63,300 nucleotides of DNA, filler included, from Rhabdomonas costata (GCA_019059605.1; 57 parts of 57 records of this genome joined end to end with filler, not necessarily neighbours in it), one strand, 5' to 3'. Counted from the whole stretch's first letter, positions 308 through 61,177 are shown. Notes: generated from the letters alone by a model not told the origin. Program-made: numbers and translations.

Positions 308-1012
308 GTGCGTTCCTTTCTTTGTGTTTGTGTTGTTCTGATTTCAGTGCTTCCCGCCTTCGCACCGCTGCACTCCAGACCCAGAAGCGGGGCCGTTGCC
401 ATTAATTGCTCCCCGGCAAAGTGGATACATGCGCTGGAGCGGTTACCGCTTGCGCCATAGTTGGCCCGGCAATAGATTGGGGATTCTCTGTTGGGGAATT
501 GTTTGCCGGGTGGTGCCGGGTTAGTGCAGTGGAGAGGCCAGCTTTCTCTATTTTGTGTCCCACCACCACATAGACCTTTTCTCCTTCTCGCCCTCCCGGG
601 CTCTGTGCCCACATTGAATTTCATGGCTGCGATTGGGCAATTGTGCAGCAGCAGCATTACAAGCGAGTACTGTTTTTCTTAAAGAAAAAGGAATTCCTCT
701 CGACTAAGAAACGTGACAGGGAGAATGTGAAGGGGAGTATTTTCGTGGATTTTCTCATTGAAGAAAATGAGAGTGTCTTCTTGTTCTCGCTCCCTTCCAT
801 TTCGTAATCATTGTGTTCAAATCCTTCATTGCTAATCAAACGCAACACTTCTCCCTGCATTCCCGACAGCACTTCACCTTTTCTTTTTCTTGCATCGAAG
901 CTTTCCTTTTAAAAACACGAAAAGCACCTTTCATCCCCAAAAGCTTTGCATTGCGGGGCTGGTCCTGCACAAAACACACAACAGCGAAGGAGAGGGTAGA
1001 GGCAGGGGGCAC

Positions 1013-1112
1013 NNNNNNNNNNNNNNNNNNNNNNNNNNNNNNNNNNNNNNNNNNNNTTAATTAATTAANNNNNNNNNNNNNNNNNNNNNNNNNNNNNNNN
1101 NNNNNNNNNNNN
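1013..1112. other. Artificial contig spacer (N44-TTAATTAATTAA-N44), recurring about every 1.11 kb (about 56 copies)
   Basis: Identical 100-nt block with stops in all six frames between every ~1.01-kb segment. Confidence 0.99.
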
Positions 1113-1463
1113 TGCTGGGATGGTGAACCACAAACCCGTAGACACGTTTATCGCCCTGTTACCCCGTGCAATTGGATTAAGGAAGAGCTGCCTCTGAATC
1201 ATCCTGAGAAGGGGGTGCCACCTTGATATTCCTTATTGGGCCACATCAATATTAGTATATGGTGCCAGTATAGGGCCTACTGGCATGACTGCTGGCTTGC
1301 CACACTTCTCTCCTTGCTAATGTTATGCCATGGTAGGTATTCCGTGTGTGTCGGAGGGGTTGCTATTGGCGACTCACCACCATTTTTCATGCCCGAGTGC
1401 CATGCACACAGCCACCCGTACCGCACCCGCAGCCTCCCTTTATGGCTCGCTGCTCATCTTCAG

Positions 1464-1611
1464 TGGGCGGACGGGATGGGGACAGGATGTCGCGGCGGAG
1501 ACTACGGTGGACGTAAAGGGGAGCAAGCAGATCGTGCTGCGCAGCTTTGCTGTCCCCGCGGATACCTCCCTGGCGGTGGCCGTAGCCAGGCACGAGGAGG
1601 CCCAGAAACAG
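1464..1611 (+). CDS. Probable internal exon, unknown protein
   Basis: Pyrimidine tract plus CAG acceptor, GC-rich codons (GRTGWGQDVAAETTVDVKGSKQIVLRSFAVPADTSLAVAVARHEEAQKQ); 3' end uncertain, candidate GC donor. Confidence 0.4.
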
Positions 1612-1757
1612 GCATTTCAACGCCCAAAGCGGAACCTCTCCCGCACCGTGACAAGCTTTCGCTTTTTAGAATTATCTTGTTTGCTGCTTGGAATCGCATC
1701 CGCCTCCCACACCAAAATTATTCCGGCATTACTTTAGAATTGTACCCACGGCCAGGA

Positions 1758-1797
1758 ACCCTAACCCTAACCCTAACCGTAACCCTAACCCTAACCC
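1758..1797 (+). repeat. Interstitial telomere-like (CCCTAA)n tract; related tracts at ~15590-15624 and ~47708-47723
   Basis: About six CCCTAA units with one CCGTAA variant. Confidence 0.9.
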
Positions 1798-3338: not shown

Positions 3339-4351
3339 GTTGGGTGTTGGAGACCGAACTGACCACGCTGACGCGGGAAAGCCGGGACAGGCTGAAGGTG
3401 GACGGGGAGGGTTTGGGGGTGCGAAAGAGCCTGCTGTGGACATCCAAGTGGCGCGGCGACGATGCGGCGGTGGGTGGGGGCATGATGAGCTCCATTGAGG
3501 AAAAGGTCTCGGTGTTGGTGGGAAAGGTGAAGGAGACGGTGGTGCCCACGTCGGGCGCGCTGGTCAAAGTGATGGTGCCCCTGCGAATGGCAGCAGAATG
3601 AGAAGAAAGAGAGAGAGAAGACACTGGAGCTTCCAGAAATGGGACTCAGTCGTCAATACAAACTACCAACCGCAACACGCAATATACGGACACGATCTCG
3701 TCCTAGTGTCCATAACCACTTCAACCGTGTGCCGGGTGGGTATAGCACTGGCTGTTGTCTGAACGGATATTAGTGACTGTTACAGACTGACGGGCGCACA
3801 CAATCTTCCCCGAGGGTGTCTGTGTAAGACAGGAATGTCCCACAACTCCCTTTCCGTCCGGCAGATTTTAGTTGCACGAAATGCTCTTTCAGCACGCCAT
3901 TTGTCCGCCATTTTTTTCCAAACACAGCAAGCGTCACCGCGCCCCTCATTCGCCACACCCCAGACAATCTCAACTGATTGCGAGAGAAACGCCCACCAGC
4001 GGTAGGCCTGGGCTGCTCAAAAAAAAACAGACTCATGAAGACACGAGTTGAGCTTTTGCTCCAAGTTTTGTGGACGAACAGGAACACAACGGCGATTTGG
4101 GTACGGCAGAAAAACAGAAGCAGCAAGTCGAGGGAAGAAGGGGGTGCACACCCCATCAGCTCAACAAGCAGCTTCGATAGGCAAAGCCCAAGTCCACACC
4201 CAGGCGCCGCACGGCTGTTCGGGCACACACAGTGAACACGTGTGAACGGCTGGAACAGCTTGTGCTGCTCCTCCTCCGCGATGCCGCACCCGTTGTCCTC
4301 AACCGTAACCCGAAGCATCGCCTCGCTTTCTCTGCTGAAAACTACCCGCAC
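3339..4351 (-). CDS. Histidine kinase HATPase_c domain fragment; exons 4351-4152 and 3580-3339
   Basis: VEDNGCGI (G1 box), LFQPF (F box), GCGLGLCLSKLLVELMG|GTITLTSAPDVGTTVSFTFP (G2 box); GTGTGC...CAG intron 4151-3581 joins in frame. Confidence 0.92.
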
Positions 4352-4749
4352 NNNNNNNNNNNNNNNNNNNNNNNNNNNNNNNNNNNNNNNNNNNNTTAAT
4401 TAATTAANNNNNNNNNNNNNNNNNNNNNNNNNNNNNNNNNNNNNNNNNNNNGACGGTTGCGTTGTACATCACTTGTGTAGGTAAAAGGGGCTGCGTCTCA
4501 GTAGTAGTTAGCTGGGAACGGCTGGGCGGAACGCTCCCCCACTGGAGGGGATTGCTCCCTGACAGACGGTGCAAAATCACTTGCTGCTGAGTCGGAGGAT
4601 TCGGAGGCTGGTCCACTGTTAGGTTCAAAGATTTCCGGTCCCATTGGTTGTTCCACTTGCGGAGGTGGCATTTGATCTATCCTTTGATCGTCGGATGGCG
4701 GCGGCGACAGTCCGGGTTGAAATGGACTGCCATGGCTGATGGAAACACA

Positions 4750-4960
4750 AGACGGACACCCGGACAAAGCCGGTCGCACCAAGATGGGTACGTTAGCGAC
4801 TCTGACTGACATCAACTGCTTCAGACGCTTACGAGGTAGTTGCATTTCAGTTACCAGGATTCGCTCATGAAGCAATCTGAAGCTCCTGAATCCAACAGAG
4901 CGGGCACTGCATGTTTCAGTAGTGGCATCGGCGGTGGGGGGGTCTTATCCTTCTTCAATG
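4750..4960 (-). mobile_element. Degenerate Ty3/gypsy aspartic protease remnant (frameshifted)
   Basis: ALLDSGASDCFMS, then a frameshift to LVTEMQLPRKRLKQLMSVRVAN; matches the protease copies at ~16.0 kb and ~62.0 kb. Confidence 0.75.
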
Positions 4961-5710
4961 GAAACTTCAACGTCGTGGACCACCCTCTCAGGAAACAAAG
5001 CCGTCAGCGTTAGTTCTTTGGGAAGAAAACCGGTATTTGTTGCAAAAGAAAAGGGGGGTTGGGAAAGGAAGAATAATCCGGTCAATCTCCCAGCGTTAAC
5101 TGCTCAAAACGTTGCTCCCTACGCTTGTCTTCTGTCTGTGTGACTCATGCACCTCACCGTTATCACTCCTACTTACCATACTGGTACTACTACCCTTCAC
5201 TGGCGGTCGCAAAACACATCCGTCAGTGCCGGCTTCCTGTGCTGTTTCGCTGTCCGCAACACACGTGGCAGCGTCGTAGCATCGCCCAGAAGAGACAACG
5301 ACAGCATTGCACGTGACGGTGGCTCCGGATGGCTTCCAGGCTTTGATCCCACGACTGCGCATTGCACTTCGGTCGGGGGTCTGTCTTCTGCGGGTTACTA
5401 CTACTGTACTCACCTGCTGACAGCATCGCACGTGACAGCAGGTGAGTACAGTAGTAGTAACCCANNNNNNNNNNNNNNNNNNNNNNNNNNNNNNNNNNNN
5501 NNNNNNNNTTAATTAATTAANNNNNNNNNNNNNNNNNNNNNNNNNNNNNNNNNNNNNNNNNNNNGGGGTTTTGTGAACATCTTTCTTTTCACGGGATGCC
5601 ATATTGCATACTCCGCTTTTCCACTTTTGTCACAAAAGATTCTCTTTTCAACTATCAGCATTCCCTGTACGGCATATTCGCTTTTGCCCTCCAATAACTT
5701 CCGTTTGCAG

Positions 5711-6407
5711 CTCTGGAGTATCTCAGTCGATAGTCCAGGCGTGGTACAACATTAGCACACTGTACCAGAAGAACGTCCCCAACCTCTTCACGGCCACCCT
5801 GTTCGCCTACAACTCTCTAAACGGGACCTACGCCACGGCCTGCCTGGCCAACACCACCACGGGCCGGTCCTCCCAGTGCTATATGGGTGCGGACTTTCCC
5901 TACCGGACTTCCTATACCGCGGACCTTCCCGATCAGCCCATATGCCAGTGGGACAACACGGTCTCTTTTATGTACTTGGTGGGCATACCCGATGCAACGC
6001 TGAGCTGCTGGGTCCCCTTCGTCGACCGCAACGCTCTGTTTATAATCGAGACCACCGCCAACGTCTACACCATCAGCAGCCTGTTGCTCTCGCTGCTTTC
6101 GGCGGCGGGGGACCGACTGTTCCTGATCTACCGCACCGTCGAGGGGCCGATGGTGGGGGCCTCGCACGGAAAGTTCTTCTCGCACTCCGACATGGACTTC
6201 AACCAGGTCAACCCAATTACGAATCCGCCTCCCATCAGTGAGTTTCGGCTGTACACCGCGGAGAACTCCACGGATGCAACAATCCAAGGTTCCGCAAAAT
6301 GGCTGATGCAGCGGTACCACCGCTGGGACGCCGTGCCCGAGCTGAACGCCACCCTGGAGCTTTCGACGGGCAGCTTTTGGATACGCTCGGTGTACATCTC
6401 CTCAACA
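5711..6407 (+). CDS. Large internal exon, probable extracellular Cache-like sensor domain of a receptor (cyclase or kinase) protein
   Basis: TTTGCAG acceptor, GTGTGT donor, strong GC3 bias, several NxS/T sequons, segment ISSLLLSLLSAAGDRLFLIYRTVEGPMVGASHG resembling Cache domains. Confidence 0.6.
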
Positions 6408-6677
6408 GTGTGTTCGCGTGGCTGAGAGGGAATACTCGTGTGCTGCACCAACATTATAATGTATTCCACATGTTCTCGGATATTCTATCGGACATTCTCT
6501 CCCTACTCTGCGCTCTACCACTCAAGTGTCGCAGATATCCCAGAGCTTCGTACCGATTTCTGCGGCGCCATTGGACTNNNNNNNNNNNNNNNNNNNNNNN
6601 NNNNNNNNNNNNNNNNNNNNNTTAATTAATTAANNNNNNNNNNNNNNNNNNNNNNNNNNNNNNNNNNNNNNNNNNNN

Positions 6678-7690
6678 GGTTTGGTAGAGCACGCTCCAGA
6701 GCCTTGACAATCGAAACATTACGGGCTGCAGGCGCGGTCTCCTCCTCTGCCGGAACTGCGGCAGGGCGCCGGTCACTGCGCAAGGGAAGCCGCTCAAGCC
6801 GAGGCTGCCTCACGTCCGATTTCTCGGCCATCCAAAGCAGTGCCTGCCGGCGCACTCTGTCCACCCGAAATCCTCGAAGGATGGGCCCAAATGGCCCTTG
6901 CTCCACCAAAGCCGCAGAGCGACCTAAGCTGCACAACCGAGACCACAAGTCCTTGACCTGCAAAACCAGAGCACCGGTCGTGGAAAGGTCTGGCTGAAGA
7001 ACGCTGATGGGAGCGGGACACAAAGCTCTTTCCCCAAGCAAGCAGTCAGTCGTGTCCCCAAGCCGTGCCCCCAAATGAACGACCATTCGCTGCGCGGTCG
7101 AAACAAGGCGCTCCTCCTGGCCGCGGAGAATTTCCTCGATTGTGTAGGAAAGATCGTCGGGTTCCAGAATAGGCAAAATGTGCACCAGCTCTGTGGTGCC
7201 GTCAATGCTAAGAATGGAAAGGGCGTGCTCAACGTTCTGGCCCTGCTCCCGAGCGTGTCGTATTTCAGGGCATTCCTCCAGCTGCTCCACAAGATCTCGC
7301 AAGACACTCCAGGAAGCTGAGAGATGTTCAAATCGATTGCGAAGTTCTTCGGCGATGACCCCATCGATGGTCCTCAAATGCTGCAGAGCTTGGTCAATCG
7401 TAAACGACAGAGCTTGCTCATTTGACAAGCGGTAAGCCAGAGCCCTGTGAAGAGCGGCCTGGAAGGAGGAGGCCGAGGCCAAATGGCGGTAGGCTTCCAC
7501 GCGACGGTCCCCCCACAACGCGTTGAGCAACGCATCGCCATCCTCGCCATCTCTCACAGCGCTGGCGTTGGATCGAAGTTTCGCAGCGTACTCATCGAAT
7601 GCCGTGGGTGGAGCAATGATTCCCATTCCCAAACCCGAAGAAGCCCTGGCCTCACTCACTTTTCCGACCAAGAGGTACCGAGGATCAAGC
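6678..7690 (-). CDS. Contig-spanning ORF fragment of a large helical protein, function unknown (weak resemblance to RNF213-like C-terminal region)
   Basis: More than 330 codons uninterrupted across the contig with protein-like composition. Confidence 0.6.
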
Positions 7691-8903
7691 NNNNNNNNNN
7701 NNNNNNNNNNNNNNNNNNNNNNNNNNNNNNNNNNTTAATTAATTAANNNNNNNNNNNNNNNNNNNNNNNNNNNNNNNNNNNNNNNNNNNNGGCAACATGG
7801 ACATGGACAGCGAGTTACATCGTGCGAAAACTAAGGCGGAAAAAAAGTAGCGTACATTGTACTCGGCCGTTGCTTTCAGCAATGAGGCGAGCAGCACGCC
7901 TTACGCCTTGATGTCAGGTCATTTAATGTGAGTGCGAGGTCAGGCGGCACGGTACGCTAAAAAACGGTGACACCCCATCGGGGAGATCCTCCAAAGTTTT
8001 CACATCGAGTGTACACTTTCTGGGACAACCGTTTAACATTGTTTCGTGTAATGTTGCTGTGACAATGGTCCCGTGACTCGGAGGTGGTGGGTTGAGCCCT
8101 GCCATTTGCCCGGCTGTTTTTGTGGCGTTTGGAGGGCTTCCCCCGACTGTTCTGGTAAGTCCTTGTTTCAGGTTTTTACATCAAAAACATCATCATCATA
8201 AACAAAGCGTTATAATTTAACAACGAAAAGAGCATAAACTCCAGCGTTTTATCCAACCAACATCCATCAAAGTGCTCCTTGAAGTTAGTTATGCTTGCAG
8301 ATTTATACTTTTACTGAGCATTCGGACATTTTGTACTGTCCCTGTTCACCATACGTAAGAAAAATGGAAACTGCCTTTTGCCCCTTGTTGTCGAAAGATC
8401 CTATACTTCTAATCTGGCAAGGGTTTTGTAAACACCCCAATATAGGTAATTTTTCGCGAAGCTTGTTGACTGTGGGACTGTGCGTTGTAGGGGATGATGA
8501 GAATTCAAAAGCTCGTGGGCGACCTACCACGGCTTGCTGACGTGCGCGGTTTCCTTACCCTGCTCACCGCCGCCGCGACACTTCCCAGTTTTGCCGCAGT
8601 GAAATCTGGGATCACGCCAAAGCAGCGGGGCCCGACCGTCCCTAAGTCAAGCCAGTCCCCGTGGGACCGCATCAGGTGACGCGAAAAGATGGTTTGGGTT
8701 CGCGGCAGTTGCTGTAAACTCTGCAACTGAATGGAGACGTTAATAAGTGAATCGACCGTTGTGGCTGGTGTTCCTTTTTTGTGACAAATACCAGGACAAC
8801 CACNNNNNNNNNNNNNNNNNNNNNNNNNNNNNNNNNNNNNNNNNNNNTTAATTAATTAANNNNNNNNNNNNNNNNNNNNNNNNNNNNNNNNNNNNNNNNN
8901 NNN

Positions 8904-13861: not shown

Positions 13862-14187
13862 CTGCTCCTGCGTCATATAAGCCAGAGTGCGAGAGGTCCA
13901 GCGCCGCCTCACCGTGCCCGAGGTAGGTTTCAGGTGGCCCTTCAGAACGCGGAGCAACGTGGTCTGAGGGGAGATAGGCCAGGGACCTCAATGGCAGCCA
14001 CCTTACTCCTCAACAAATCGGACAAGCATCCGTCGGCAAACGCCAAAATGTTCATGTTTGCCGACGGTTCGACCCATTAAACAAAAATCCGAGATGGTTA
14101 TCCGACCGGGGAACCCCCGAAGGTGCAGAACGATCGCAAGCCACACCTTGCCACTGCCGTTCTCCCCGCAGATGACCACGCGCTCCC
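13862..14187 (-). CDS. ABC ATPase (ABC-F-like) nucleotide-binding domain; exons 14187-14147 and 13963-13862
   Basis: Spliced GERVVICGENGSGK|TTLLRVLKGHLKPTSGTVRRRWTSRTLAYMTQEQ: Walker A, PxSGxV and Q-loop; GT-AG intron splits the Walker A motif. Confidence 0.85.
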
Positions 14188-15961
14188 CTGTGAAGATCAA
14201 ACCAGATCAGACCGAAAAAGCGCTCACCGTTGTCAGGCAGAGTCTTTCTGCTTGAAGAAATGCAAACGTGAATTCCCTTCGCCAATGGACGAATTCGGAC
14301 ACCACTTGCACGACCCACACGAGGGTACTTTCATGTGAATGAAACAGCCAAAGCATTCCACCAAAAACNNNNNNNNNNNNNNNNNNNNNNNNNNNNNNNN
14401 NNNNNNNNNNNNTTAATTAATTAANNNNNNNNNNNNNNNNNNNNNNNNNNNNNNNNNNNNNNNNNNNNGGTGTTGTGTTAGCTCAGAAATGAGAAGAATA
14501 TATGTATGCTGGTTGCGTGTTCCCACGCGACGCGAAAACCACGGTCGCTTTCAGCTCCTCCTTCATGCGCGGGATTCAAGTGCCTCGAAGGGCTTGTGCT
14601 GAGCGCCAAGGTGATCTGCGTTCAGGAGCCGTGCACTGCCGAGGAGTGCTGTCGAGCTACCTTGTAAAGGTGTCATTGCTCACGCGTGGCGACATGAAGA
14701 ATATCGACCAAGTAATATCTCGAACCAGAGAAATTGTTCTGCACTCCCAGGGGTCACGTGTATTGCAACCTAACCCCCTGCGAGCGAAAGAAACTCAATC
14801 AGGGGACACGCCTATCGCAAACTTAACCCCCTGTGAGACCAAATAGCAACCTCCGAGGACACGTTGCGCTCCATGGCCCAAGATCCTAGGCGATCGTCGG
14901 CGTGATACGGAACTCCCCCGTGCATTTCTTTCAGGTCGATTTTCAAAGTATTTTAGTCAGTTGCCGAACTCTCGTTGCTCCTCACACCCTCCTCCCACGT
15001 CAGGCTTGCTTCAGGAGAGTCTGGGCTGCTGCCCGACAGCCCAGTGGGAACCAAGAGGTTCTGCGACGTGCAGGGCTTGCGGCCGTTGGGGGCCAATGTC
15101 ACCCGCCTGGCCACACGAGGGGAGATTCGGAAGGTTTTCCCACACTTTCATCCATTGCTTTCCCACTGTTTCAGGACCTTTCGCTGCGCATATTTTTGTG
15201 AACGTGGGTGGCGCAGGGCAGACCTCTGGAGTCCAAGAGGATGCGTGGGTCAATCGCTTTAATTCATGCTTCTTGCGCCTTTGATAGCAAGTACTGTACC
15301 ACCTGTGGTCTGATTCCGCAATTGCAATGCTGCGACGTATTTGTTTTCCAAAATAAATGCATGGGTTGAAGCTGAGTGTCTGCGAAAATCGCGCACACAC
15401 TGCATTTGCGAAAGAAGGGTAGGTATCGGCTTCGATCCAAAGGCGTGGTACATCAGCGTTTGGATCGAAGCCGATACCCACNNNNNNNNNNNNNNNNNNN
15501 NNNNNNNNNNNNNNNNNNNNNNNNNTTAATTAATTAANNNNNNNNNNNNNNNNNNNNNNNNNNNNNNNNNNNNNNNNNNNNGTGGTGTTGGGGTTGGGGT
15601 TAGGGTTAAGGATAGGGTTAGGTTTACAAGAGGTGATGGCAAAGTCGGGGGAAGGTGGCATTGTATTGTGCAGGTTAGGATTTGACCTGGGTGATTAGTA
15701 AAAAGCTGAATTTCTTTTTGTCGGCTTTTGGAAAGAGGGTTAAAGAAATATGGAGTTTGACATTTAGTGATAATTAGATAATAGAGAAAGGAAATTTGTT
15801 TCATTTTTCTTGCAAATTTCCAGGTTTCGCTAGGATCTTGAACCGCTTTGCCGTTTAAGACATCCAGCGCGACAAATCTGTGGCGCGGGCATACAAAACA
15901 AATTGCAATGCGGAAAAACGCGATATTCCGAAAACTCGGACAAAGTGCGTCACGGGAAGTC

Positions 15962-16330
15962 ATTTCACGTTCGCAACCCTCACCGTAAGCTTCTGCTGCA
16001 ACGTGTACCTCTTCAAACGGAATCTATGGACCAACTCCTGAATTATAAACAAATCTGAAGCTCCGGAATCCAATAACGCCCTAACTTGGGTGTTCCCGAT
16101 CCACAAAGGCAAGAACATTAGTGGCTGATGGGGGAGGGTCTGGCAAATCTCCCAAGAACCCAACCCACTCTCGCGCGTCTCTCTGGAATGGCAACACGAA
16201 TAGCTGGACCTGGGTACTTCCTTCCACTATTCGAATGCTGCTTACCGCTGTCGTTGCTAAATAATCCGAGGACTCATCTGAAAACTCGTCTACTACCACG
16301 CTCAACTCGCAAAGCTCTGTGCAATGCTCG
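15962..16330 (-). mobile_element. Ty3/gypsy pol remnant (retropepsin), truncated
   Basis: QPLMFLPLWIGNTQVRALLDSGASDLFIIQELVHRFRLKRYTLQQKLTVRVAN, with the DSG catalytic motif. Confidence 0.85.
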
Positions 16331-23599: not shown

Positions 23600-24224
23600 C
23601 TGGGCGAGGTCCTGCGGGCGGCCCTGATGACTCTGTGCGCTGGGGTGGAGGCGATGCTCTCTGTGGAGCCATACCCCTTGCTCACGCTGTCATCCCCCAT
23701 ATATGTCCTCGGTGCGTTGCGTGCGCTAGTTCGTTTGATGCCGAAAGCGAGTTGTTCTGATGGACAGTTACGTGATGCGTAGAAGGGGTTGATGCCTCTC
23801 CGTTCAAGGTCCTTTCAAGTCCTTTCAAGTCTTCACGTTGTACAGAGAGGGTGGCTATTTTGAAAACCTGTGAACCGGGCGGAAAGTCCTGCTGACCAAG
23901 AAAGCTGATTCTGAAAACTGCATTTAAAAGCTTCGTGGAGGAACAACCACACAGCGGGGCGTGGTCGAGGGATACGGACAGGCGCTCTTGGAGCTGGTCG
24001 GGCCCGTTTCGTGTTTCCTCCACTTGGCGTTGTTGTTGGATCCCTTCATCTGCCATCCGGCTGTCATTTAGTACATGTCCTTCTGACTGATTCTGCTTCG
24101 AACGCAGGAGACTTTCATGGGAACTTCGCCGATCTAATGTTCTATCTCTCGAACATCGTCAGCTTCGGGGATATGCGGTACACGGCCTGCAGCTTGCTCT
24201 TCCTTGGGGACTACGTGGACAAAG
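23600..24224 (+). CDS. PPP-family Ser/Thr phosphatase; exons ~23600-23711 and 24108-24224
   Basis: LLTLSSPIYVLG|DFHGNFADL...LLFLGDYVDKG: GDxHG and GDxVD(R/K)G motifs; GTGCGT...CAG intron. Confidence 0.9.
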
Positions 24225-26701: not shown

Positions 26702-27559
26702 GGGTGTTGGTTCCTGTTCCGCGATGCCCTGGAGCTGACTCCGGGCAACGCCTTGCTGGAGGAGCTTGTTTCGCAATGCCTCACCCGCTCGAATCGCTCA
26801 AAGGAGTGCAAGGATGCCCTTGATAGAATCTTTCAAAAGCCCGACGATCATGCCCTGGATTCGCCATACACCTGCGCCAAGGGCCCGCCTTACCTGACCT
26901 TCATGGGCATTCTCCTTCCTACGCCGAAGGGAAGAATCCCTTCCATCGAGCCTGATCACCAGCTGGTGATGGTGCCCTCGATGCTGTTTAATATAGCCCG
27001 TGGCCTATGCTCGGTATACACCGGGAATCGAGTGCTTCTCTGTGGAGGTTGTGCGACGGGGAAGTCCCGGTGCATCCGCGAGCTGGCTCGACTGCTGGGA
27101 TGTTCCTCAGACCAGCCAGGCCTGCACGAGAAGAGGGCAAAGCCTGTGTCCGTGAACTGCTCCTTGGTCAGCTCGGCCCATGAGATGCTGGGCAGCTATG
27201 TGCTGGCCAAGGGAGGAAAACGAGGCGCCGTCACACAGGAGTTCAGGTGGCAGAATTCGAATCTTGTTACGGCCTTCCTGCACGAAAAATTAGAGATACC
27301 TGAGACTCCAGACGCTTCTTTTCGCCCCTCAAGCGCCAGGTCGGGGCCCGGGAGGAAGCACGTCCTTGGGACCGTGGCTTCCTCGCAGCGAAAGCCTTGG
27401 ATTGTTGCTCTCGAAGGCCTGAACCAATCTCAGGGTTCCAGACAGCAGCTTTTGGTGCCCTTTGTCGATACCCGGCACCCAGTCCTCCGCCTAGTGGGTA
27501 AGCCCTCTCCTCAAAACGCGGCCCAGACCCCTCTGCTCGCGACAAGCACGACGATGGAG
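26702..27559 (+). CDS. Dynein-related (midasin/AAA_5-like) AAA+ module of a large protein
   Basis: VLLCGGCATGKS Walker A, VNCSLVSSAHEMLGSY, EFRWQNSNLVTA, WIVALEGLN at the Walker B position; GTGTGC donor at 27560. Confidence 0.75.
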
Positions 27560-27978
27560 GTGTGCTGGTTTGCTTCGTACTGTAATGGGATTGTGGAAAC
27601 AGATTGTGGCAGATTGTGGCAGCATGAAATCCCTCCACGCTTGCACCTTGATAATATGCTTTTCCGTGGAGTGATTTCATGCTGCCACAATCTGCCACAA
27701 TCTGTTCCCACAANNNNNNNNNNNNNNNNNNNNNNNNNNNNNNNNNNNNNNNNNNNNTTAATTAATTAANNNNNNNNNNNNNNNNNNNNNNNNNNNNNNN
27801 NNNNNNNNNNNNNTGTGGTGGGTGTGGTTGGTTTTTGTTGGTAGCGGACGGATGAGGCGAGAAGTGTGTGTGTGGGGGGGGTCTTGCAAAAATTTGACTT
27901 TCGCTGTAGTTGAACAGCCTTAAACACCAACATTTTGTTTTTCAACAAGTGACTGCACGGGGTTTAAAATAGGTGTAC

Positions 27979-35207: not shown

Positions 35208-35663
35208 GTGTGAATGCTGAAAGACGAGGTTGGGGAGGGGGGTACTTTTTAGTGAAGGTTTGGGAAGCGTGTTAGGCTTCCTTCTCTTCTCTGTGGGTGC
35301 TGCTGTTGGACTCATCATCCCTTTGAGCGCGGGGGAAGTCTTTATGAAACTTGGTAGGTTGCAAAAGTCAGCCGCAGGTGTCCCCCTCAGAAAGCGCAAT
35401 TGGATTGCGCTGAAGCAGCCATGGACATTGTTATGCGAGGATCAACGATTTATCATAATTGCCCTTACCTTCCCTTCCTTTCCCTCCCCAAACCCNNNNN
35501 NNNNNNNNNNNNNNNNNNNNNNNNNNNNNNNNNNNNNNNTTAATTAATTAANNNNNNNNNNNNNNNNNNNNNNNNNNNNNNNNNNNNNNNNNNNNGCACA
35601 ATGCGCTCAACGCACCCTCCCCTTCTGCGGCTTGCTCGTCATCCTCCTCCTCCTCCTTTTGAG

Positions 35664-36765: not shown

Positions 36766-37712
36766 GTCGCAAGAGCATGGCTCGACGGACCTCGCAAGGC
36801 TCGAGCTCAGACAGGCCTTCCCTTACCGGCAGCCGGAGCGTGGCGGAGAGCGAGTCGGGGCGGAAATTCACGTGTGCGATGCGGTTTGGGCTTGCCATGG
36901 GCCCGATCACCGCAGGGGTGTTGCAGGGCACGTGCCCCGCTTTTGACATCTGGGGCAAGACGGTGAACCTTGCGAGCCGGATGGAGGTGTGTCTGGCGCA
37001 CTGTGTCATGTTTGGAATAGTATGATAGAGCTGAAAGTTCAGTGGAAGCCACGCGGGCCGTCATTACCACCAGGGCGCGGACGGGCTTTCGGGTTGGTTG
37101 CCCACGAATTTCTGCAAGCGTTCATGTTCTTCTTGTGCTGCCTGCCTCTTCTTTCTTAATGGGCGTTTCCCACCAATCGACCGCCCACCGCCTCCGCCCG
37201 TCAACATTTGCCTGCTCTGGCCACTGTTTGCCTTTTCTGGACGTCTCTATGGAATTCCCCGCCTGCGTATTCTCTGTTTTTCGTCCGAATTAACTTGTTC
37301 AGATGCTGATTCGCACCCCGCTTTGTCGAGCATGGCGCCTTTATGCGCTGCATGTCTTATTCTTTGGGGACAGTTGTGTCTGCTCGTGTTTGTGTATGGT
37401 TGTGCGATGTAAAGACAGAAAAGAAACACACACACACACACACACACGTGAAGGAGAGCGGGGAAAGCTGTTGGATGGGGAAACAAAAGTTTCCAAACAA
37501 AACTATTTAGATGCTGGATCGCACCCCTCTTTGTCGACCATGACGATTTATGCGCTGCACGTCTCTGCCAAATAGAGCTCTGGCGTCCCAGGCAACGTGC
37601 AGTGCTCCGAGGGGGTGTACCAGGCCGTGGCCGGTGCCCCCGACTGCCCCGTGATCTTCGACAAGCCCCACACCACATATGCCAAGGGCTTTGGCAACAT
37701 CATCGCGTACAA
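36766..37712 (+). CDS. Class III adenylate cyclase catalytic domain (C-terminal half); exons 36766-36986 and 37576-~37712
   Basis: MRFGLAMGPITAGVLQGTCPAFDIWGKTVNLASRME|SSGVPGNVQCSE...AKGFG; GTGTGT...TAG intron joins in frame. Confidence 0.93.
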
Positions 37713-41155: not shown

Positions 41156-42165
41156 TCATTTTTCACTCGCGAAGCTGTGGAATGGACTTTGTGGAGCTAG
41201 TGCGGCAGCACCGTTCCATGTTCACCAAAGGGGTTGTCCATTCCTTCAGCGGCACCAAGGTTCTTTTTTGTTGTTCTGTTCTTGTTTCAAAGTTGTTTCA
41301 AAGTTTCTTTTTCTTGCCTTTGCCCCCTTTCCTTTTGAACTTTTGCCCACACTTTCTGTGGGCACCGCTGTTGTTGTCGTTTGCTCACCGTCTACCTGCG
41401 ATGTGAGGTGTCTTGAACTGCAGCACTGCATCGAGCATCTGCCAAGTTTTTCAGGAAAGAGAAATATGAATGATTTTACACAGTACAGAAATAATGCAGG
41501 AAACCCATTCTGAATCACAAAACCAACTCTTCAAACAGGAGATGTGATAATGTGTTTGTACTGGACAGAGATGTCCATGGAAGGTGTCCATGGAGGTGTG
41601 TCTGTATGTCTGAGTGGGTGGGTGTAGGTGTCTGAGAAAGTTGTGTTCAGCGTATATAATGGAGGATGTGGGCATGCGGGCACTATAAGAGGGACTGAAG
41701 AACGGGTTGCGAACCTGCGTGAAAGTTTCAGATCCGAATACGCCGACCATGGCTGTCCCTTTGTTGTGCTACGCTTAGCGGTCACGGTCATTTCTCTGTC
41801 CCAGGAAGAGCTCGAGAAGATTCTCGAGCTTGGGCTATACGTGGGGGTCTCCGGAGCCTCTGTCCGGACGGAGGCCCAGTTGGAGCTTCTGCGGCAGATC
41901 CCGCTAGATCGCCTCATGGTGGGCTCCGATGCGCCCTGGTTTGTGTCCTTAATTGGGGGAAATGGAGTGACTTTGCTCCTCAGCATACCCTACCATACCC
42001 AATGTGTGAAAGCTCCTCACTCCCGTTCTACATTTCATCAATGATTTTTCTGGGCTTCAGGCTGCCCGTTCCTCTCTTCTTGTCCTTCCGGTTCCTGCTG
42101 CTGCTTTTCAGGTGTGACATTCGTCCAGAGCACTTCGGGCACCGGTTTGTCCGCACCCAACCCCC
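41156..42165 (+). CDS. tatD: TatD-family nuclease; exons 41156-41259, 41805-41938 and 42112-~42165
   Basis: IFHSR...GVVHSFSGTK|EELEKILELGLYVGVSG...IPLDRLMVGSDAPW|CDIRP; two GT-AG introns join in frame. Confidence 0.9.
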
Positions 42166-43659: not shown

Positions 43660-44492
43660 CTGTGCACGGAAGAGCGCATTAAAAGACTCACGACAAAGAC
43701 CAAAGGGATTACCAAAAACCTCCAGTCCTCCCGCTCCCCCACCCCCAATGAAGATTGTTCAAATTCCAAAGCAGTGGGCACTTGACGTCACTTGACATTG
43801 CCTTGTACCCAACCATTCGCTCAAAGTCCAAGGAGGTTTCTCTCAGTGATTTTTCTCGTTTCCGTCGTCTCTGCATATTTCTGAAGAGAAAACCAGAGAA
43901 AACGTTAGACAACAACTTTCAGGGTTGCTGCGAGAAGGCTGCTCGACGGGGGAAGTAAGCATAATGAGCATGAAGGTGGTCAAGCATCCCCTTCATTCAT
44001 CCCCTTGTGCAACGGTTTGCCAACGAAATATGCTCCGCGTCAGGCGTCAAAAGTGAGACTAGTCTACCAAACATTAAACGGCATGAAGAGGGCTAAGCCG
44101 AAGCAGGCCCTGGGGTCTTTTATATATACAACAGGCCTCCCAAAACGCTGCCTGGCCGGTCCTTGGGGTCAGAATTCTCTGACCTTTCACCCTCGGCTGG
44201 TTGTGGTGCCCTTGGGCGGCTCTCTGGTATCCCTTTTGTGCCGCTTCTTGCCCCACGCAGCGATCTACCAAACAATAAAATGCTGACAGAAAGCCCACGT
44301 GTGTACGTGTGTGCAAGAAGGATGGATTTTGTGCGGAAATCACGGTGCTGTTTCCTCCAGAGCTTCTGCTCGACTGTCCACCACACCCAACANNNNNNNN
44401 NNNNNNNNNNNNNNNNNNNNNNNNNNNNNNNNNNNNTTAATTAATTAANNNNNNNNNNNNNNNNNNNNNNNNNNNNNNNNNNNNNNNNNNNN

Positions 44493-45390
44493 GGGGCACA
44501 TTTACCGAGTCATCTTTATCTCCCGAAGTCAGAAACGCTGTGCTTCCAGAAAACGGGGTATATCCGTAACGTATAGCATCTAAATCCATAGAAGAGCCAC
44601 CCGCTGCGACAGTCCTGTGTAGCTGAGCTTCCGGAACTGCTACTATAACTTGGGGCGGGGGTCTTGGTTTCCGAAAATACTCCCACGCTAATTCCATGGC
44701 CTCGTGCAGCGTCCGCGGGTGCTTGGACATCACTTTAGCTTGTATATCTCCTTCCAAGCCTCGAACGAACAAATACTGCTGCAACGGCTCGTTGTCAAAC
44801 ATCGTGCCCTTTAGCAGGTTGATTCCCGTCACAAACTGCCGGTGGTAGAACTGGAAATTCCCGTCCGTCATCTTTAGCTGTTCCATTCTCCACACGACGT
44901 TGTAATCCCAAGTCTGAGGACACAGCCTTTTCTTTAGCGTTTCCACAAAACCTTTCCAGTCCACAAAGGTCTGACCTGGCGCCACTATACCTCTTGCGAA
45001 GGAGCCAAGTGCTCCCGTGGCGTAAACTATAGCAACTTGATCTGGCAACCTCCGGACATCTTTTAGCTCTTCGACACTAATCAACCAAGGCAAGAAATTG
45101 GCTGCGTTCCCGTCGTATTTCGGGAACTCCGGGTCTTTTTCTTGAAGCTTCCGCAACACACCTCCAATTGGGTCTGTCTGTCCGGCTGCCGCCGCTGGTG
45201 CTGGTGCAGAGGAACTGCTCGGCAATCCTGCAGTCACCCTCTGCAGTAACTCTTGCGTCAGCTGATGATTCGCACGCTGCTGTTGCTCCATCTGCTGGAA
45301 GAAGGAAACCATCTGTGCTAAAAACTTGGCCTCCAATGGCTGAGCAGCTGCTGGTTTAGCTGGCGGTGGTGGAGGTGGTTCGCCTGACAT
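44493..45390 (-). mobile_element. gag: Ty3/gypsy LTR-retrotransposon Gag ORF, intact as far as visible
   Basis: Intron-free ORF of about 300 aa: PKYDGN...WL, WKGFVETLKKRL, LKM...F, FVRGLxxDIQ, PRTLHEAM, MDLDAI retrotransposon capsid signatures. Confidence 0.88.
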
Positions 45391-46734
45391 CTTTAACCGA
45401 AAAGGAATCACAAGTCCAATATATCTCGATCAACCAAAAAGAAGTTTTGGACTTGTGATTCCTTTTCGGTTAAAGATGTCAGGCGAACCACCTCCACACC
45501 CCCACNNNNNNNNNNNNNNNNNNNNNNNNNNNNNNNNNNNNNNNNNNNNTTAATTAATTAANNNNNNNNNNNNNNNNNNNNNNNNNNNNNNNNNNNNNNN
45601 NNNNNTTTTGTGGTGTGGACGGGCTGGCAGTAGAGCGTGCGCCTCCAGGCCTGGATGGGGTTTCCGTTAAGGAGGTGTGGTGGGCCGAGAGCCAGAGTGA
45701 AAAAGCGAGCAGTTGGCTTGCTGGTATATAACGCGGAGATTTTGGCGCCCAATAAGACTCTCAAAAATAGCCAGTCCGAGGTGGTTAAACCTTCGTTTGA
45801 AGGACTGTTATTCGGGGGTGGTCAAACCTTCCTTACAAGGAAGAATGACATGATTCAGGTGGTGGCGAGGTGGGGAGAAGAGGAGTACAGGAACCCCCCC
45901 CCTCCGTTTCTCCCACTCAGTTTCGTGGTGCTGTTTCATGCACTACCACTCCGATTGTTCCTCTGCTTTCCCTCCCCTCCATTATTCCCACTGTTCCCTT
46001 CTCCACTGTTCTTCGGCGCTGTGCCCCGTCCAAACCTTGTCTCGCTGACGCGTTGTCGTAGTAGCATCCGGGTGTACAGAAAAGAGGGGAGAAAAGAGGG
46101 GAAGGTGATGGAAGGGAGAGAGAAACCTGCCTTTACCAATTACCACAAGGCGATGGGGTCCGAGTGGAAACCTCTGGTTTTGGTATCGAGAAGTGGTGCG
46201 GTGCTTTTGTATGGGGGGGCAGGTGTTTGCCAATGGGCCCGCCGAGCGTGCTAAGTTGCACAAAGGAGACCGAATTATCGGGATTGATGGTTGTTCCCTC
46301 CCCCCTTTTCTATTTCGCCTTTTTCGGGGTTGAAGCACTCCTTGTGCAACACCATATCTTCATCAGAATATACCAATCAAAAAGGGACCTCTTCAATGAA
46401 GTCACAAACCCGCAATTGCAGCAGCCTGTCTGCAGCTCATCTCTTTTTTTACCAATCCACTCACGAGTCAGACCGGAACCACAATTGCCTTCGCCCTGTG
46501 TTTCACGTCACCGCTCTCACACCTAACGGTTGCTTGGATCCGAATCCCGGGTATGCTTGGCATCGCAACCCCATCCACTCCCCATTCACTTCACAGCACC
46601 ACACCACAACACCTTCANNNNNNNNNNNNNNNNNNNNNNNNNNNNNNNNNNNNNNNNNNNNTTAATTAATTAANNNNNNNNNNNNNNNNNNNNNNNNNNN
46701 NNNNNNNNNNNNNNNNNGTGTGGTGGGGGCATGC

Positions 46735-47330
46735 CTCGGGGACGGTATCGGCGATGTGCTCGCGGTGTTTCACGATCTCCTCGTACTTGGGGATGCTGTA
46801 GCCGTGGTAGTACGTGAACTCTGGAGCCAGGATTTTCGGGGCCACGATGACATCAGTGAGGGTCTGGAGGAGGATGCGGTCCTTGTCGTCCGTGACGCGG
46901 CCACCGTACTGGATCTCGCTGATCATGTACTTGATCGTGTCGTAGTTCACGGGCTGCCCCTGGGGTAGAGAATAAGGGGAGTATGAGTATGGTGCGTGCA
47001 AGTGGGTAATGAAGGGATAACTCAACTTTTTCCTCGTTGTCCAATCGGCCAACAATGTGCAGCCAATTTTGCCTGTACACTTGGATAATCCCCCCTGTGT
47101 GAACTGGTGACTCGTCTCTTTGGCGTCTCGTTTCAAGTCCACGTGCGCTAGGGCTCGCTAAACTGGAACACTTCGTGCGTTCTGGTTATTTGTATGCATG
47201 AGTGTACGTGCATGTGTGTGTGTGGATGTGGGCAGACCTTCTTGGGGTCATCCCCGATCGTGGTGAGATGGTTCTGCACGAACTGCACGCTGGAGCTCCA
47301 GTCACCGAAGTTGTACTCGTACGGGATGCA
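46735..47330 (-). CDS. Axonemal dynein heavy chain, AAA6 lid / C-terminal region; exons 47330-47238 and 46959-46735
   Basis: CIPYEYNFGDWSSSVQFVQNHL...KK|GQPVNYDTIKYMISEIQYGGRVTDDKDRILL. Confidence 0.95.
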
Positions 47331-53964: not shown

Positions 53965-53974
53965 CTGCACCACA

Positions 53975-55423: not shown

Positions 55424-55465
<42 letters not shown>

Positions 55466-55618
55466 GCGCCTTGGCGCGGTGTGCTGTGGCGTGTCCTTGT
55501 GCTGCTTGTTCTGCACACNNNNNNNNNNNNNNNNNNNNNNNNNNNNNNNNNNNNNNNNNNNNTTAATTAATTAANNNNNNNNNNNNNNNNNNNNNNNNNN
55601 NNNNNNNNNNNNNNNNNN

Positions 55619-56340
55619 TTTCATTCTTTCAGAGCATGGAGCAGCAACAGAGGGCAAATCACGATCTTACTCAGGAGTTGCTGCGCAGAGTGGTTGCTGG
55701 GCCCCCAGCAGAAGGTTCGCAGAGTGGAGGAGGGGCGCCCGCATCGACAGTCCCAGAAGTAGCCGGAGCGTTGCGAAAGTTGCAAGAGAAAGAGGAGCTG
55801 AAGGATTTCCGGACTTCTAGACCAGGTGGCAATCATCTACGCCACAGGAGCTTTGGGATCATACGCCAGAGGGATCGTAGCGCCAGGCCAGACGTTTGCC
55901 GACTGGAAAGATTTTGTTGAAACGCTCAAGAGGCGGCTGTGCGCCCAGACCTGGGACTATAATGTGGTTTGGAGGTTGGAGCAGCTGAAGATGTCAGAAG
56001 GAAACTTTCAGTTTTACCATCAGCAGTTTGTGACTGGGATGAATTTGCTGAAGGGAACGATGTTTGAGAGCGAGACCTTATTGCAGTACCTGTTCGTAAG
56101 AGGCTTGGAAGGGGACATCCAGGCGAAAGTGATGGCGAATCCGAGGAGCCTGAACGAGGCCATGGAAAAGGCCTGGGAGTATTTCCGCAAGCCGAGACCC
56201 CCTCCACAGGTAATCGTTGCTGTACCAGAGGGTGCAGTTCAGAGAAGCATAGCGACGGGGGGCACGGCAATGGATTTAGACGCCATACGATACGGGTACA
56301 CCCCGTTTTCGGGGAGTACGGCATTTCTGACGTCGGGAGA
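55619..56340 (+). mobile_element. gag: Second, damaged copy of the same Ty3/gypsy Gag family
   Basis: Protein closely similar to 44493-45390, but lacks the PEFPKYDGNAANFLPWLISV segment and is frameshifted near 55815. Confidence 0.88.
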
Positions 56341-59207
56341 GCGGAGTGCAGCCGGTGCCACATCCACAGCTTCAAGAGGGGTGTCAGATGTGAGCATGTT
56401 GCGGAGGAATTCAAATCTTATTGAGATGTCGGCGTCTCCGACACTAGCCGCAACAGTGCCAGCTAGTTCAGTGATGTTTTCCACCCCACCACATCATCAG
56501 TTCAACGTGGCGCGCACACATCTACAGAAAGAAGGCCGAATCAAGGCAGAGGAATGTCGGTGTTTCGAGGTCGGGGTTACATGGGAAGAGGACGAGGTTA
56601 TTACCGATCACCGTCACCATCCCGAAGTTGNNNNNNNNNNNNNNNNNNNNNNNNNNNNNNNNNNNNNNNNNNNNTTAATTAATTAANNNNNNNNNNNNNN
56701 NNNNNNNNNNNNNNNNNNNNNNNNNNNNNNTTTGTTGGGGTTCCATTGATCGTTGATTTAGTCGAAATGAGCCGAAAAGGGAGGAGAATCGAGATTGTCC
56801 AAAGATGAGGACTTTTTCATCTGACTGGATTCCTTTCAGCAGCCTGCGTGTTGGGAAAACGTGGCACGCATGTGAAAATGAATAAATTAGTTAGTTTGCA
56901 GGAGAGTGCAGATTGCCCTTGTGAAGTTTTGAGAGGTGTGAGTGCATTTCAAAAAGGTGGTTTTAGGTGGTGTGATGTCAACTACACATTTCAAGCATTT
57001 TGTCACAAACAAACGAGTGCTGTATTTCGCACAGATATCAAGTGGATTAACATTGGCGTGTGGTACGTGGCGATTGGCGCAACAACGCTGCTGACGGGGT
57101 ACTTCGGGGTTTTAGCGATCAGGTGCAATAGCACAAAGCAGACTCCATACATTTCCGTTCGCCTTTGGGCAGAGTTTATGGAGTTTTGTGTCTGTTTCTT
57201 TTTTTTGGAATTATGTAAAGTTGTGAAAGGATACCGAGGGGTTCTAATGCTGTATATATCGCATATTAATCTTATGCCCCCCTGCAAGTATATTAAGAAA
57301 TCATCAATGGCTTGAGTACATATGCCAATCTTTAACGCTTTTTTTTATGGTTGAGCTGTTTAGCAGCTTGGTGCCTCGCAGAGATATGAAACAATTGGGT
57401 AATTTATGGACGATTCTGACGTCGCCGCATTTCCTTGTTCCCAGGTGGCATCAGTTGGACCTTTGCATGCCTATGCACATGCCGAGCTCTATTTTCAACC
57501 GAGGCTGCTTAGCATGCCTAAGGACAGGTCCCATTCGCCCTAACACAGAACGTTGGGTTGATGGCTGCTCTAGGCACCCTTCGAGGACCTTTTTTGAGGT
57601 CTTTATAAAACAGTTTCTTCTTTTCCTTGCCCACTCCATCAACTCATGCTGCTTTGCAACTAAGGCTTATGGTGAGGTTCCGGTACCTCCCGCGAAGCCA
57701 CATCCTGGGCCAGCTCACGGAACCCCACTACCCCCCAAAAANNNNNNNNNNNNNNNNNNNNNNNNNNNNNNNNNNNNNNNNNNNNTTAATTAATTAANNN
57801 NNNNNNNNNNNNNNNNNNNNNNNNNNNNNNNNNNNNNNNNNTTTGTGGTGTGCTCCATAAAGTTGTTGATAATAAAAAAGAAATTTTTCTTTTTTTGTAA
57901 AACGTAAAATTCCTCCCTGGTTGCTTAATACGTTTTCTTAAGCATGAACAAAATTCTATTTTAATTAATTAAAATGGCACGTGTATGTTTTATTTTTGTT
58001 TTCCACACAAAACACTATTTCCGCTTTTTTAAATTCGAAATTTCATCTCTTCGAAATCGATCAATTTCTGAAGATCTCGCAAGAGATGTACCCGCTCAAA
58101 GTTGCATTCTCCGAGGAAACCAAAATTATCTCTTTGGTTTTCTTCATAATTTTCTATTTCGTACAAAAAACATTTACACGCGCGCGGTTGAGTCGTAGTC
58201 TGCGAAGACATCAACCGGAGAAAACCTAAACAAGAAACTGGAAAGACGATGCAAGTTGCACGAGACAAGGTTCGTGCTCCAGCCTAGACGGCCCAATCTC
58301 CAAGGATTTCCGAGCAAACAAGCGAACAATCAAAAAAACTATTTTCACGCACCCACCGGATCTACGAGGCGGGCGCGCATGGACGGTCACACTGAAAAAC
58401 AGAAACTGAAGGGGAAACCCGGCCCAGGACCGAGGCCCGGGCAACAACCAGAAAACGGACAGGGGGCACACACCACACAAAGCACACAAACCCCCAAAGA
58501 GAACACTCGGCACACTAGCTGACAGCGGCAGGTGTGGCAAAATGGAATGTGCACAGAGATATATTTCGGAGTGTTTCGTGTAACCATTCTGGAGAGGGAA
58601 ACTGCAAAGTCCTATTACCCTGCGTACAAAGTGTCTTGCATGTTGGGCTTTGCTTCGCGCAATGAAAATGGTCAGCGAATGAGTGAGCATATATTTTGAC
58701 TCGTACATGAGTAGGTTTTGAAAACGTTGTTGGCACACAAGCAAACGTCCGTAATTGGTGGGCCACCAGGTGGGTCGAAATACAACGTAATCACTCCACA
58801 GTCAAGACGGGTACGCTTGCTGATAGTTCGCCACCAACGTTTTCAAAACAAAANNNNNNNNNNNNNNNNNNNNNNNNNNNNNNNNNNNNNNNNNNNNTTA
58901 ATTAATTAANNNNNNNNNNNNNNNNNNNNNNNNNNNNNNNNNNNNNNNNNNNNGGTTTTTGTGTGTGTGGTCGTGCTTGTTTCAAAGTTGCAGGTTCGGT
59001 AATCAGCATCCGCATTTGTAGGCACCCCGCCGGTGCACCCCGCCTAGGGCAGTCAAGAAGTGGCAGAGGGCTGGCTTGAGGGAAATTCAATCCACTGCGT
59101 GGAGACGGTAGCTCCAGTCAAAAGCCAAGGCTGGGCTACAGCGGCAACATCCTCCCTAATGTTGGCTTGGATTCGACACTACCCAACCCAACCAACCTAA
59201 TTTCCAG

Positions 59208-59900
59208 CGGTCTGGAGGCCTTCGCGAAGTTTGTGCCCCGGGATGTGGTGAAGATGATGCTCAGCGGGGCGATGAGCCGGGACAGCGTGATGGCGTGGAG
59301 GAAGCTCACCGTCATGTTCACCGACATCGTAGGTTTCTGCGCTCTCCGCCAGCTTCCCGCTGTGTCCAAACCCGTTGTCCTCTATGGTGATATATGTCTG
59401 CCTGTCGTTGGATCTTCTCATCTGCCGCAGACACAGTGAGAGTTTGGGGAAGGCTTGTCTCGCACCCCGTCTTCCTCCCTCGCCCCCCTCCTTGAGCCTG
59501 AAACTTGCGTTGGTAGCGTTGAGACTCGGGCTTGGTGCATGTATGTGAGTGCTGATATCGGTCAAGTTCTCGATGTCTTGAGTGCAGCTCCTTGCTGGGT
59601 GCCATGGCGCAGAATTGTGCTTTTTCTCTCACCGTTGCACAGCACCTAGAATCTCTTCCATTGGGGAAGTTTCTTTATATTCCAGAAGAACTTGTGGCCT
59701 CCTTTTGTCCACTTCGCTGTCGCACTTTCGGTTTCTCTTCCTTAGACCTCAGACCTCAGACAGATGGGCCCTTCCGCTTTGGCACAGGGTTCACGTCGAT
59801 TTGCGAGACGATCTCCGCCGAGGACTTAGTTAAGCTGATGGCGGACTTCTTCCAGAGCATGTGCGAGGAAATTGTTGGTACCGGTGGTATCCTGGATAAG
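59208..59900 (+). CDS. Class III adenylate cyclase catalytic domain (N-terminal half, bacterial-like); exons 59208-59332 and 59788-59900
   Basis: FAKFVPRDVV...LTVMFTDIVG|FTSICE...LVKLMADFFQSMCEEIVGTGGILDK; metal-binding Asp and ATP-specifying Lys present. Confidence 0.93.
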
Positions 59901-61177
59901 GTGTGCTGTGGGGCCCATGTCCAGTTCCCAGCACACCTTATCCAGGATACCACCGGTACCAACAANNNNNNNNNNNNNNNNNNNNNNNNNNNNNNNNNNN
60001 NNNNNNNNNTTAATTAATTAANNNNNNNNNNNNNNNNNNNNNNNNNNNNNNNNNNNNNNNNNNNNGTTGGTTGGGAAGGTCGGAAAAAGAAGCACAACCG
60101 ACTTATTCGAGTCGTGATCAAGGCCAACGTCGGCTGGTGGCAGTGCCTCACTCGGATTCCTTGACTCATGAATGAGCTTCGCTTCAGGTTAGCCTTTGCC
60201 TGGTGACTGGTCGTCCTGCAAATAGCGGCTGTCATCCCCATGGTGCTGCCCAGTTCTGACAGCGGAAAAGGTGATTGATTGATTTTTTGCCGGAGAGAAA
60301 GCGGCTACCTGTATTCTTTTTTTGTGTGAAGCGAACAGGTGTTTCTGTTTCCAGGACTGCATGCCCGCACAGACGTGGTGCCAATAGTCCGCAAACATGC
60401 AAGCGTCGGGGGTCCGGCACAAAGTTAACCACATCAAGGCAAGGGAAGAGAAGAAACAAAAAGGTACGCAAAGTGTGTGTAGAAACAGGAGAGGGGATTC
60501 TAGCAGGCAGGGTTGGCCGAGTGAGTTGGCGCGCCGAAAGGGACGCACGGACGCGCGTCACGTGGGAAAAAAAGCAAAAAGAGTTCAACTGGGAGTCAGC
60601 GGGGGAAAACACAGAAACCAAAATTAAGAAGGGAGGACAACACGGAACAAGAATGGGCAAAAGCCGGGTGTCCGCATGTATTTCTTCATGTCTGGGGTCT
60701 TGCAGCCTGCAGCCTCAGATGCGCTTGCATAGTCTCCATCTTCTCCCTGTCAAAACGCCGTGACGCGTCCACTCTCCTTGCCGCCCACGGGTCCCCAGGG
60801 TGTTTCAGGAGTGACCCGCCTGTGTGATCTGAAGGCCTACCAGTTTCTGTGTACCCACGGGAAACATCGCGCAAACAGATATTGGCCCGTCCAAGTGGAG
60901 CTTTTCCAGTAGATGAGGAAGTGTCCTTTCGTCTCTCGTCAAGATGCTTCTTTCCCACCGTTTATCTCCACGTCCACTGCTATCTTGACTGAAGGAGCAA
61001 ATAAAAAAGTAATGGACGGTGCAATATCCCCTCCTCTGGGAAGGCGAGGCAAGCCCCATTCTGTGGCCCCCACCCACNNNNNNNNNNNNNNNNNNNNNNN
61101 NNNNNNNNNNNNNNNNNNNNNTTAATTAATTAANNNNNNNNNNNNNNNNNNNNNNNNNNNNNNNNNNNNNNNNNNNN

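Follow-up and report, generated by a model that had tools for sequence, protein, structure and literature searches.

The closest described counterparts of the introns considered here are the conventional introns of Euglena gracilis, for which GTGTG was reported as the consensus of 11,527 GT-AG introns defined from full-length transcripts (Gao et al. 2024, PMC11170887). According to the same report, all five bases of the 5' splice site (donor) of E. gracilis pair with the U1 small nuclear RNA (snRNA), one of the pairs being a G-U wobble, U6 carries an ACAGA box, the GT-AG introns possess a C-rich polypyrimidine tract, and the donor of the spliced leader (SL) RNA is GTATA. The present analysis concerns the donors found in a stretch of 63,300 bases of Rhabdomonas costata DNA (GCA_019059605.1), referred to below as the window, for which a preliminary description had proposed that the common donor consensus GTRAG is replaced by GTGYG (R, purine; Y, pyrimidine). 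It is very likely that these are ordinary U2-type GT-AG introns of R. costata or of a very close relative, and that the normal donor of this lineage is GTGYG and not GTRAG. A GTGYG-type donor is already a known norm of the lineage. GTGTG has been published for E. gracilis, and the observation is therefore real but ordinary for a euglenid.

For R. costata, six genes were published to hold 29 complete GT/AG introns, and about 11,400 putative introns were tabulated (PMC8219788). In that paper Table S2, as judged by its heading and initial rows, gives four-letter borders only, e.g. GTAG. No extended donor logo for this species was found in a literature search that included the intron section and the beginning of Table S2 in the same paper. 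Euglenids also carry many nonconventional introns, in which the borders are not conserved and the ends are joined by a helix of positions +4..+6 with -8..-6, as well as intermediate introns that can begin with GT (Milanowski et al. 2014, 2016; PMC3935182, PMC4770533). Complementarity to U1 is described as what parts the conventional from the nonconventional introns (PMC3935182, PMC4770533; Guminska et al. 2018). In the diplonemid Sulcionema specki, variant U1 5' ends were reported, and a match between them and the logo of the local 5' splice sites was discussed (PMC12621601).

The window does not represent a single locus but a chain of 57 separate contigs, each 1,008-1,016 bases long, with 56 identical spacers of the form N44-TTAATTAATTAA-N44 between them (e.g. 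1013-1112 and 2126-2225). N accounts for 4,928 of the 63,300 bases, in 112 runs of 44 N paired around the 12-mer TTAATTAATTAA. Features of different pieces are not to be linked; apparent open reading frames (ORFs) of 370 codons (e.g. 6622-7734) span N spacers. The 11 donors listed in the preliminary description are spread over eleven different contigs, and since these contigs are separate, the donors sample the genome at scattered places and do not reflect a single gene cluster.

The G+C content of the non-N bases (51.3%) and the strong fragmentation agree with the values published for the R. costata draft assembly (G+C 51.63%, N50 1,194; PMC8219788). An exon at 5712-6089 showed 98.4% identity over 126 residues to the eukprot protein RCo015333 (P0003), and five more RCo proteins are paralogues of the exon from 5712 onward, with 45-65% identity. 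RCo identifiers are those of the 'Rhabdomonas transcript ID' column in Table S8 of Soukal et al. 2021 (PMC8219788). Because of this identity and the origin of the identifiers, the host is, as judged by sequence, R. costata or a very close relative, and the euglenid placement that had been guessed from the donor consensus proved right. The two mismatches to RCo015333 may be allelic or paralogous. For the dynein exon described below, the sole match among longer proteins was an E. gracilis transcript (62% identity).

Genes were sought with Pfam. The scan took in every stop-to-stop ORF that reached 70 aa (439 in total) and, of the 543 with lengths of 40-69 aa, 300; on seven contigs it also covered each of the 103 ORFs on the gene strand with 20 aa or more. 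Few recognisable genes were found, comprising a HATPase_c of the histidine-kinase type, an ABC ATPase, a class III cyclase, a TatD nuclease, the AAA-lid of a dynein heavy chain and Ty3/gypsy fragments; the 300 ORFs of 40-69 aa gave two weak matches, of which ABC_tran alone is plausible. An intron was considered supported on two sides when two ORFs of one contig matched successive stretches of one Pfam model, and its junctions were set by listing in-frame GT/GC...AG pairs, by reading of the sequence and by alignment to solved structures. Five introns could be mapped on both sides, and all five are GT-AG (the two sequences given for each are its donor and its acceptor, in this order):

3581-4151, minus strand: a 571-nt intron of a HATPase_c gene (histidine-kinase type) that runs from GTGTGC at 4151 to ...TTCGCAG, the last base of which is 3581
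13964-14146, minus strand: a 183-nt intron by which the Walker A motif of an ABC ATPase is split and which runs from GTGTGG to ...CCCCTCAG
41260-41804, plus strand: a 545-nt intron of a TatD/TATDN1-like gene that runs from GTTCTT to ...GTCCCAG
41939-42111, plus strand: a 173-nt intron, also of this TatD gene, that runs from GTTTGT to ...CTTTTCAG, after which the exon resumes with GTGTGAC
46960-47237, minus strand: a 278-nt intron that separates two exons of a dynein heavy chain (AAA lid domain) and runs from GTCTGC to ...TACCCCAG

In the first of these, the upstream exon matches HATPase_c model positions 32-88 and the downstream ORF positions 84-109. The alignment of the upstream exon to a histidine kinase structure (PDB 7z8n_A) stops at ...MG, exactly at donor 4151, and 4151/3581 is the sole in-frame GT..AG pairing that gives LVELM^GGTITL; a PDB search with the second HATPase exon returned no kinase match. 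For the ABC ATPase, ABC_tran extends over two ORFs (model 8-31, E=0.008, and 25-68, E=0.039), joined as GENGSGK^TTLLRVL. The TatD model was matched at 126-165 and then at 155-207 in successive ORFs, and in the TATDN1 structure 8efg_A the exon upstream of the 41260 intron ends at residue 179 (K) and the downstream exon begins at residue 180 (E). At the second TatD intron the TATDN1 alignment reaches ...DAPW, the next residue of the homologue being C, and the spliced TG|G TGT GAC reads W-C-D. The dynein exons were placed by tblastn with P0001 (eukprot EG_transcript_2519), residues 513-546 of which align to 47330-47229 with 79% identity and residues 543-621 to 46962-46726 with 62%. AAA_lid_11 is split across them (model 27-57 and 53-126), and the junction DDPKK^GQPVNYD agrees with the length of the homologue.

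Two of these genes invite a further remark. The region 3339-4351 on the minus strand can be described as an intron-containing gene for a histidine-kinase-type ATPase domain, with 7z8n_A as its best PDB match (E=1.7e-8). The GTGTG at 42112-42116 on the plus strand, located right after the TatD acceptor, is exonic (W-C-D), and the pentamer alone is thus no mark of a donor.

Direct inspection of the sequence confirmed all 11 listed donor strings at their coordinates and strands: seven read GTGTG, those at 308 and 23712 read GTGCG, 41939 reads GTTTG and 47237 (minus strand) reads GTCTG. The preliminary description had claimed 17 donors, but six were given without positions and the total is irreproducible. 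The listed donors were graded by the support for their exons, i.e. homology on two sides, clear homology on one side, a weak match or a motif recognised by eye, and none. Homology on two sides applies to 4151, 14146 and 47237 (all minus strand) and to 41939. At 36987, 27560 and 6408 clear homology stops at the GT on one side, 308, 35208 and 59901 belong to the weak or by-eye grade, and 23712 is unsupported. Those without homology on two sides are:

36987-36992, plus strand: GTGTGT at the end of an exon (...NLASRME|) for a class III adenylate/guanylate cyclase, with a Guanylate_cyc match
27560-27565, plus strand: GTGTGC at the end of an exon of 286 codons that belongs to a P-loop (AAA_5-like) protein, with homologue P0010
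6408-6413, plus strand: GTGTGT closing the exon 5711-6407 of a multi-copy Rhabdomonas family without a Pfam domain; the exon follows the acceptor ...CCGTTTGCAG, whose last base is 5710
59901-59906, plus strand: GTGTGC after an exon ending ...IVGTGGILDK, with a cyclase-like motif recognised by eye and no Pfam match
308-313, plus strand: GTGCGT after a Cys-rich exon, with an EGF_2 match that is weak (E=0.0015), spans model 1-26 of 32 and is cut off at the exon end
35208-35213, plus strand: GTGTGA after an 88-codon ORF, with a weak Cadherin_4 match (E=0.014)
23712-23717, plus strand: GTGCGT, string present, claimed as a donor, exon unsupported

A motif-blind rule, by which the donor is the first GT past the end of protein homology, yielded 11 donors, ten of which were on the earlier list, the extra one being 41260 (GTTCTT). 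All GT pentamers on both strands of the 57 contigs (n=6,924) served as background, in which GTGYG occurs 467 times (6.7%) and GTRAG 198 times (2.9%). GTGYG was found at five of the eight strongly supported donors (P=6.6e-5 against the background) and at eight of the 11 supported by homology when weak matches are included (P=5.9e-8), while GTNYG accounts for ten of these 11. All 12 donors examined begin with GT and none reads GTRAG; position +3 is G in nine, +4 is T in nine and C in three, and +5 is G in 11. The observation of GTGYG donors in place of GTRAG is thus confirmed, although 23712 has no exon support and the donor at 41260 lies outside the pattern.

Six acceptors were mapped, a small sample, all ending in CAG. 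Their positions -23 to -4 are 77% pyrimidine, with C making up 51% of the pyrimidines, which fits the C-rich tract of E. gracilis. The features found are those of conventional euglenid introns, namely GT...AG ends, a GTGTG-type 5' consensus, a C-containing pyrimidine tract and a euglenid host. None of the five complete introns shows the non-GT/AG borders or the end helix of the nonconventional type.

Several observations weigh against GTGYG as the normal donor. The exactly mapped donor at 41260 fits neither GTGYG nor GTNYG. With the two-sided introns alone, GTGYG is found in two of five (P=0.04) and GTNYG in four of five (P=0.003). The sample of donors is small, every one-sided donor is the first GT past the end of homology with further GTs within reach, and several donors lie within GTGTGT runs that offer other GTs. 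GTGTG is moreover the commonest GT pentamer, occurring 303 times or 2.6x the expectation. In a homology-free test the share of GTGYG among GTs was 5-7% close to the 3' ends of long ORFs and 8-11% within these ORFs, and thus not enriched at the ends. This comparison is confounded in that most long ORFs are no exons and GTRAG contains stop codons, and we regard it as uninformative. The frequency of GTGTG, the choice among GTs within the runs, the lack of enrichment at ORF ends and the want of exon support for 23712 would all be explained if GTGTG is simply frequent in TG-rich DNA, motif-like GTs had been picked and the consensus is unshifted. Such an artefact of composition and selection appears very improbable: the motif-blind rule still gives eight of 11 against a background of 6.7%, GTGTG is the donor in two of the introns fixed on both sides, GTRAG is absent from all 12 donors, and an identical consensus was obtained from 11,527 transcript-defined introns of a related species (PMC11170887). 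It is equally hard to believe that some of the GTGYG introns are nonconventional or intermediate ones that start with GT by chance and are removed without U1. Many such introns exist in euglenids, where intermediates may start with GT (PMC3935182, PMC4770533), and no 3' end was found for seven of the 12 donors, but the five complete introns all combine GT-AG borders with a pyrimidine tract and CAG, and the three-pair helix of +4..+6 with -8..-6 is present in none of them (0/5).

For the favoured explanation, by ordinary U2-type introns with GTGYG donors, the 5' end of the host's U1 would, as in E. gracilis, pair with all five donor positions, one of them as a G-U wobble. U at +4 and G at +5 would also suit a canonical ACAGA box, if the host's own U6 carries one. 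The 3' end consists of a mixed C/T pyrimidine tract and a CAG after it. The U1 pairing suggested in the preliminary description thus agrees, as an analogy, with the published E. gracilis case. An altered U6, which had been raised as a further possibility, would not be required for GTGYG donors, because U at +4 and G at +5 would already pair with the canonical box. In budding yeast, U at +4 and G at +5 of the GUAUGU donor pair with the canonical ACAGA box of U6, and these donors tolerate a U-U mismatch with an unchanged U1. The consensus could then be real with a canonical U1 5' end, the preference at +4 and +5 being set by U6 as in yeast. In favour of this, +4 is a pyrimidine (nine T, three C) that could not be paired equally well by a single U1 base, and the U6 of E. 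gracilis has the ACAGA box (PMC11170887). In the same species, however, the donor bases all pair with U1, including one G-U pair (PMC11170887), so that the base opposite +4 would be non-canonical, and we regard a canonical U1 as quite unlikely. A broader proposal is also unlikely, namely that a GTGYG code is common to the primary osmotroph Rhabdomonas and the phototroph Euglena and ancestral to a large part of the euglenids, that it separates cis donors read by U1 from the GUAUA-type donor of the SL RNA, and that the mixture of T and C at +4 comes from two variants of the U1 5' end, such as one diplonemid has, and not from one wobbling U1.

Compared with the known systems, the introns of the window resemble the conventional introns of E. 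gracilis (PMC11170887; Breckenridge et al. 1999 as cited there) in their GT-AG ends, the GTGTG donor, the C-rich tract, the euglenid host and the coexistence with other intron types. They differ in that R. costata is a colourless osmotrophic rhabdomonad and not a phototroph, in the C at +4 of three of 12 donors, and in the nature of the data, a dozen donors inferred by homology here against 11,527 defined by transcripts there; the pairing with U1 would hold for R. costata by analogy only. Introns of the nonconventional and the intermediate type are present in the same organisms, and the intermediates may begin with GT (PMC3935182, PMC4770533), whereas the five complete introns of the window lack the helix and all have a pyrimidine tract and CAG. 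S. specki offers a euglenozoan precedent for non-canonical U1 5' ends, yet that case combines a C-stretch U1 variant with G-rich sites in a diplonemid (PMC12621601). The donors of the window are the looser signal when set beside those of budding yeast, with G at +3 in nine of 12. The yeast donor, a nearly invariant hexamer with A at +3, is alike in the pairing of U at +4 and G at +5 with U6, and departs from GURAG without a changed U6.

These results add one euglenid species to the consensus published for E. gracilis. Gene finders trained on GTRAG will mis-model the genes of the R. costata genome, and in assemblies without labels such a donor logo can serve as a taxonomic hint that DNA is euglenid. 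No new question is raised unless the U1 of the host fails to match.

Among the donors with homology on one side, 36987 closes the cyclase exon close to the end of the Guanylate_cyc match (E about 1e-9, model 98-138 of 183), which lies at about 36989, with further GTs at 36989 and 36991; a downstream exon was looked for by Pfam in the ORFs of the contig and was not found. The exon closed by 27560 gave a weak AAA_5 match (E=0.02). No homologue of 26702-27712 was present among proteins of similar length, and a search of representatives then gave P0009-P0011. P0010 aligns up to 27553 and continues with ...AEPGSVV, where read-through in the window gives MEVCWF. P0009, a homologue of 26702-27604 on the plus strand, runs past the donor position with ...AGVCCVF, which resembles this read-through, and may be a prediction that reads into an intron with a GTGTGC-type donor. 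The family of the exon 5711-6407 comprises six RCo proteins and one JGI protein with 45-98% identity, and all alignments begin at 5712, just past the acceptor. P0002 showed 64.5% identity over 5712-6404. It is longer by another 25 residues, for which the 170 bases left in the contig hold no code, and no downstream exon was found there. An in-frame stop follows donor 6408 at 6423, with alternative GTs at 6410, 6412 and 6418. For the claimed donor at 23712, no Pfam match at E<=10 was obtained in any of the three upstream frames.

A candidate intron of 40 nt with the donor GTGAGC was noted at 14188-14227 on the minus strand, just upstream of the exon with the ABC Walker A motif. Its acceptor at 14188 is forced by an in-frame TGA 21 nt upstream with no AG between, and the upstream exon that it implies fits ABC ATPases poorly. 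If real, this intron would have a GTRAG-type donor.

An Rfam scan of the window gave no matches at the gathering thresholds, and at E<=1 eight matches with no snRNA among them. All eight are to microRNA (miRNA)-precursor models, on both strands, at three hairpin-forming inverted repeats. These repeats, at 59872-59908 / 59929-59965, about 45372-45500 and about 5393-5462, are long and perfect or near-perfect, have short loops and are situated on three contigs, each at or near one end. Their appearance is less that of genes than of assembly artefacts or of chimeras formed by fold-back of amplified DNA. The donor at 59901 sits within the left arm of the first of them, a 37-nt fold-back repeat at the end of its contig.

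Fragments of Ty3/gypsy type were detected on four contigs, at 44440-45429 (minus strand), 55802-56683 (plus strand), 15963-16226 (minus strand) and 61815-62240 (minus strand), and consist of two Ty3 capsid-like ORFs and two ORFs for retroviral-type aspartyl proteases.

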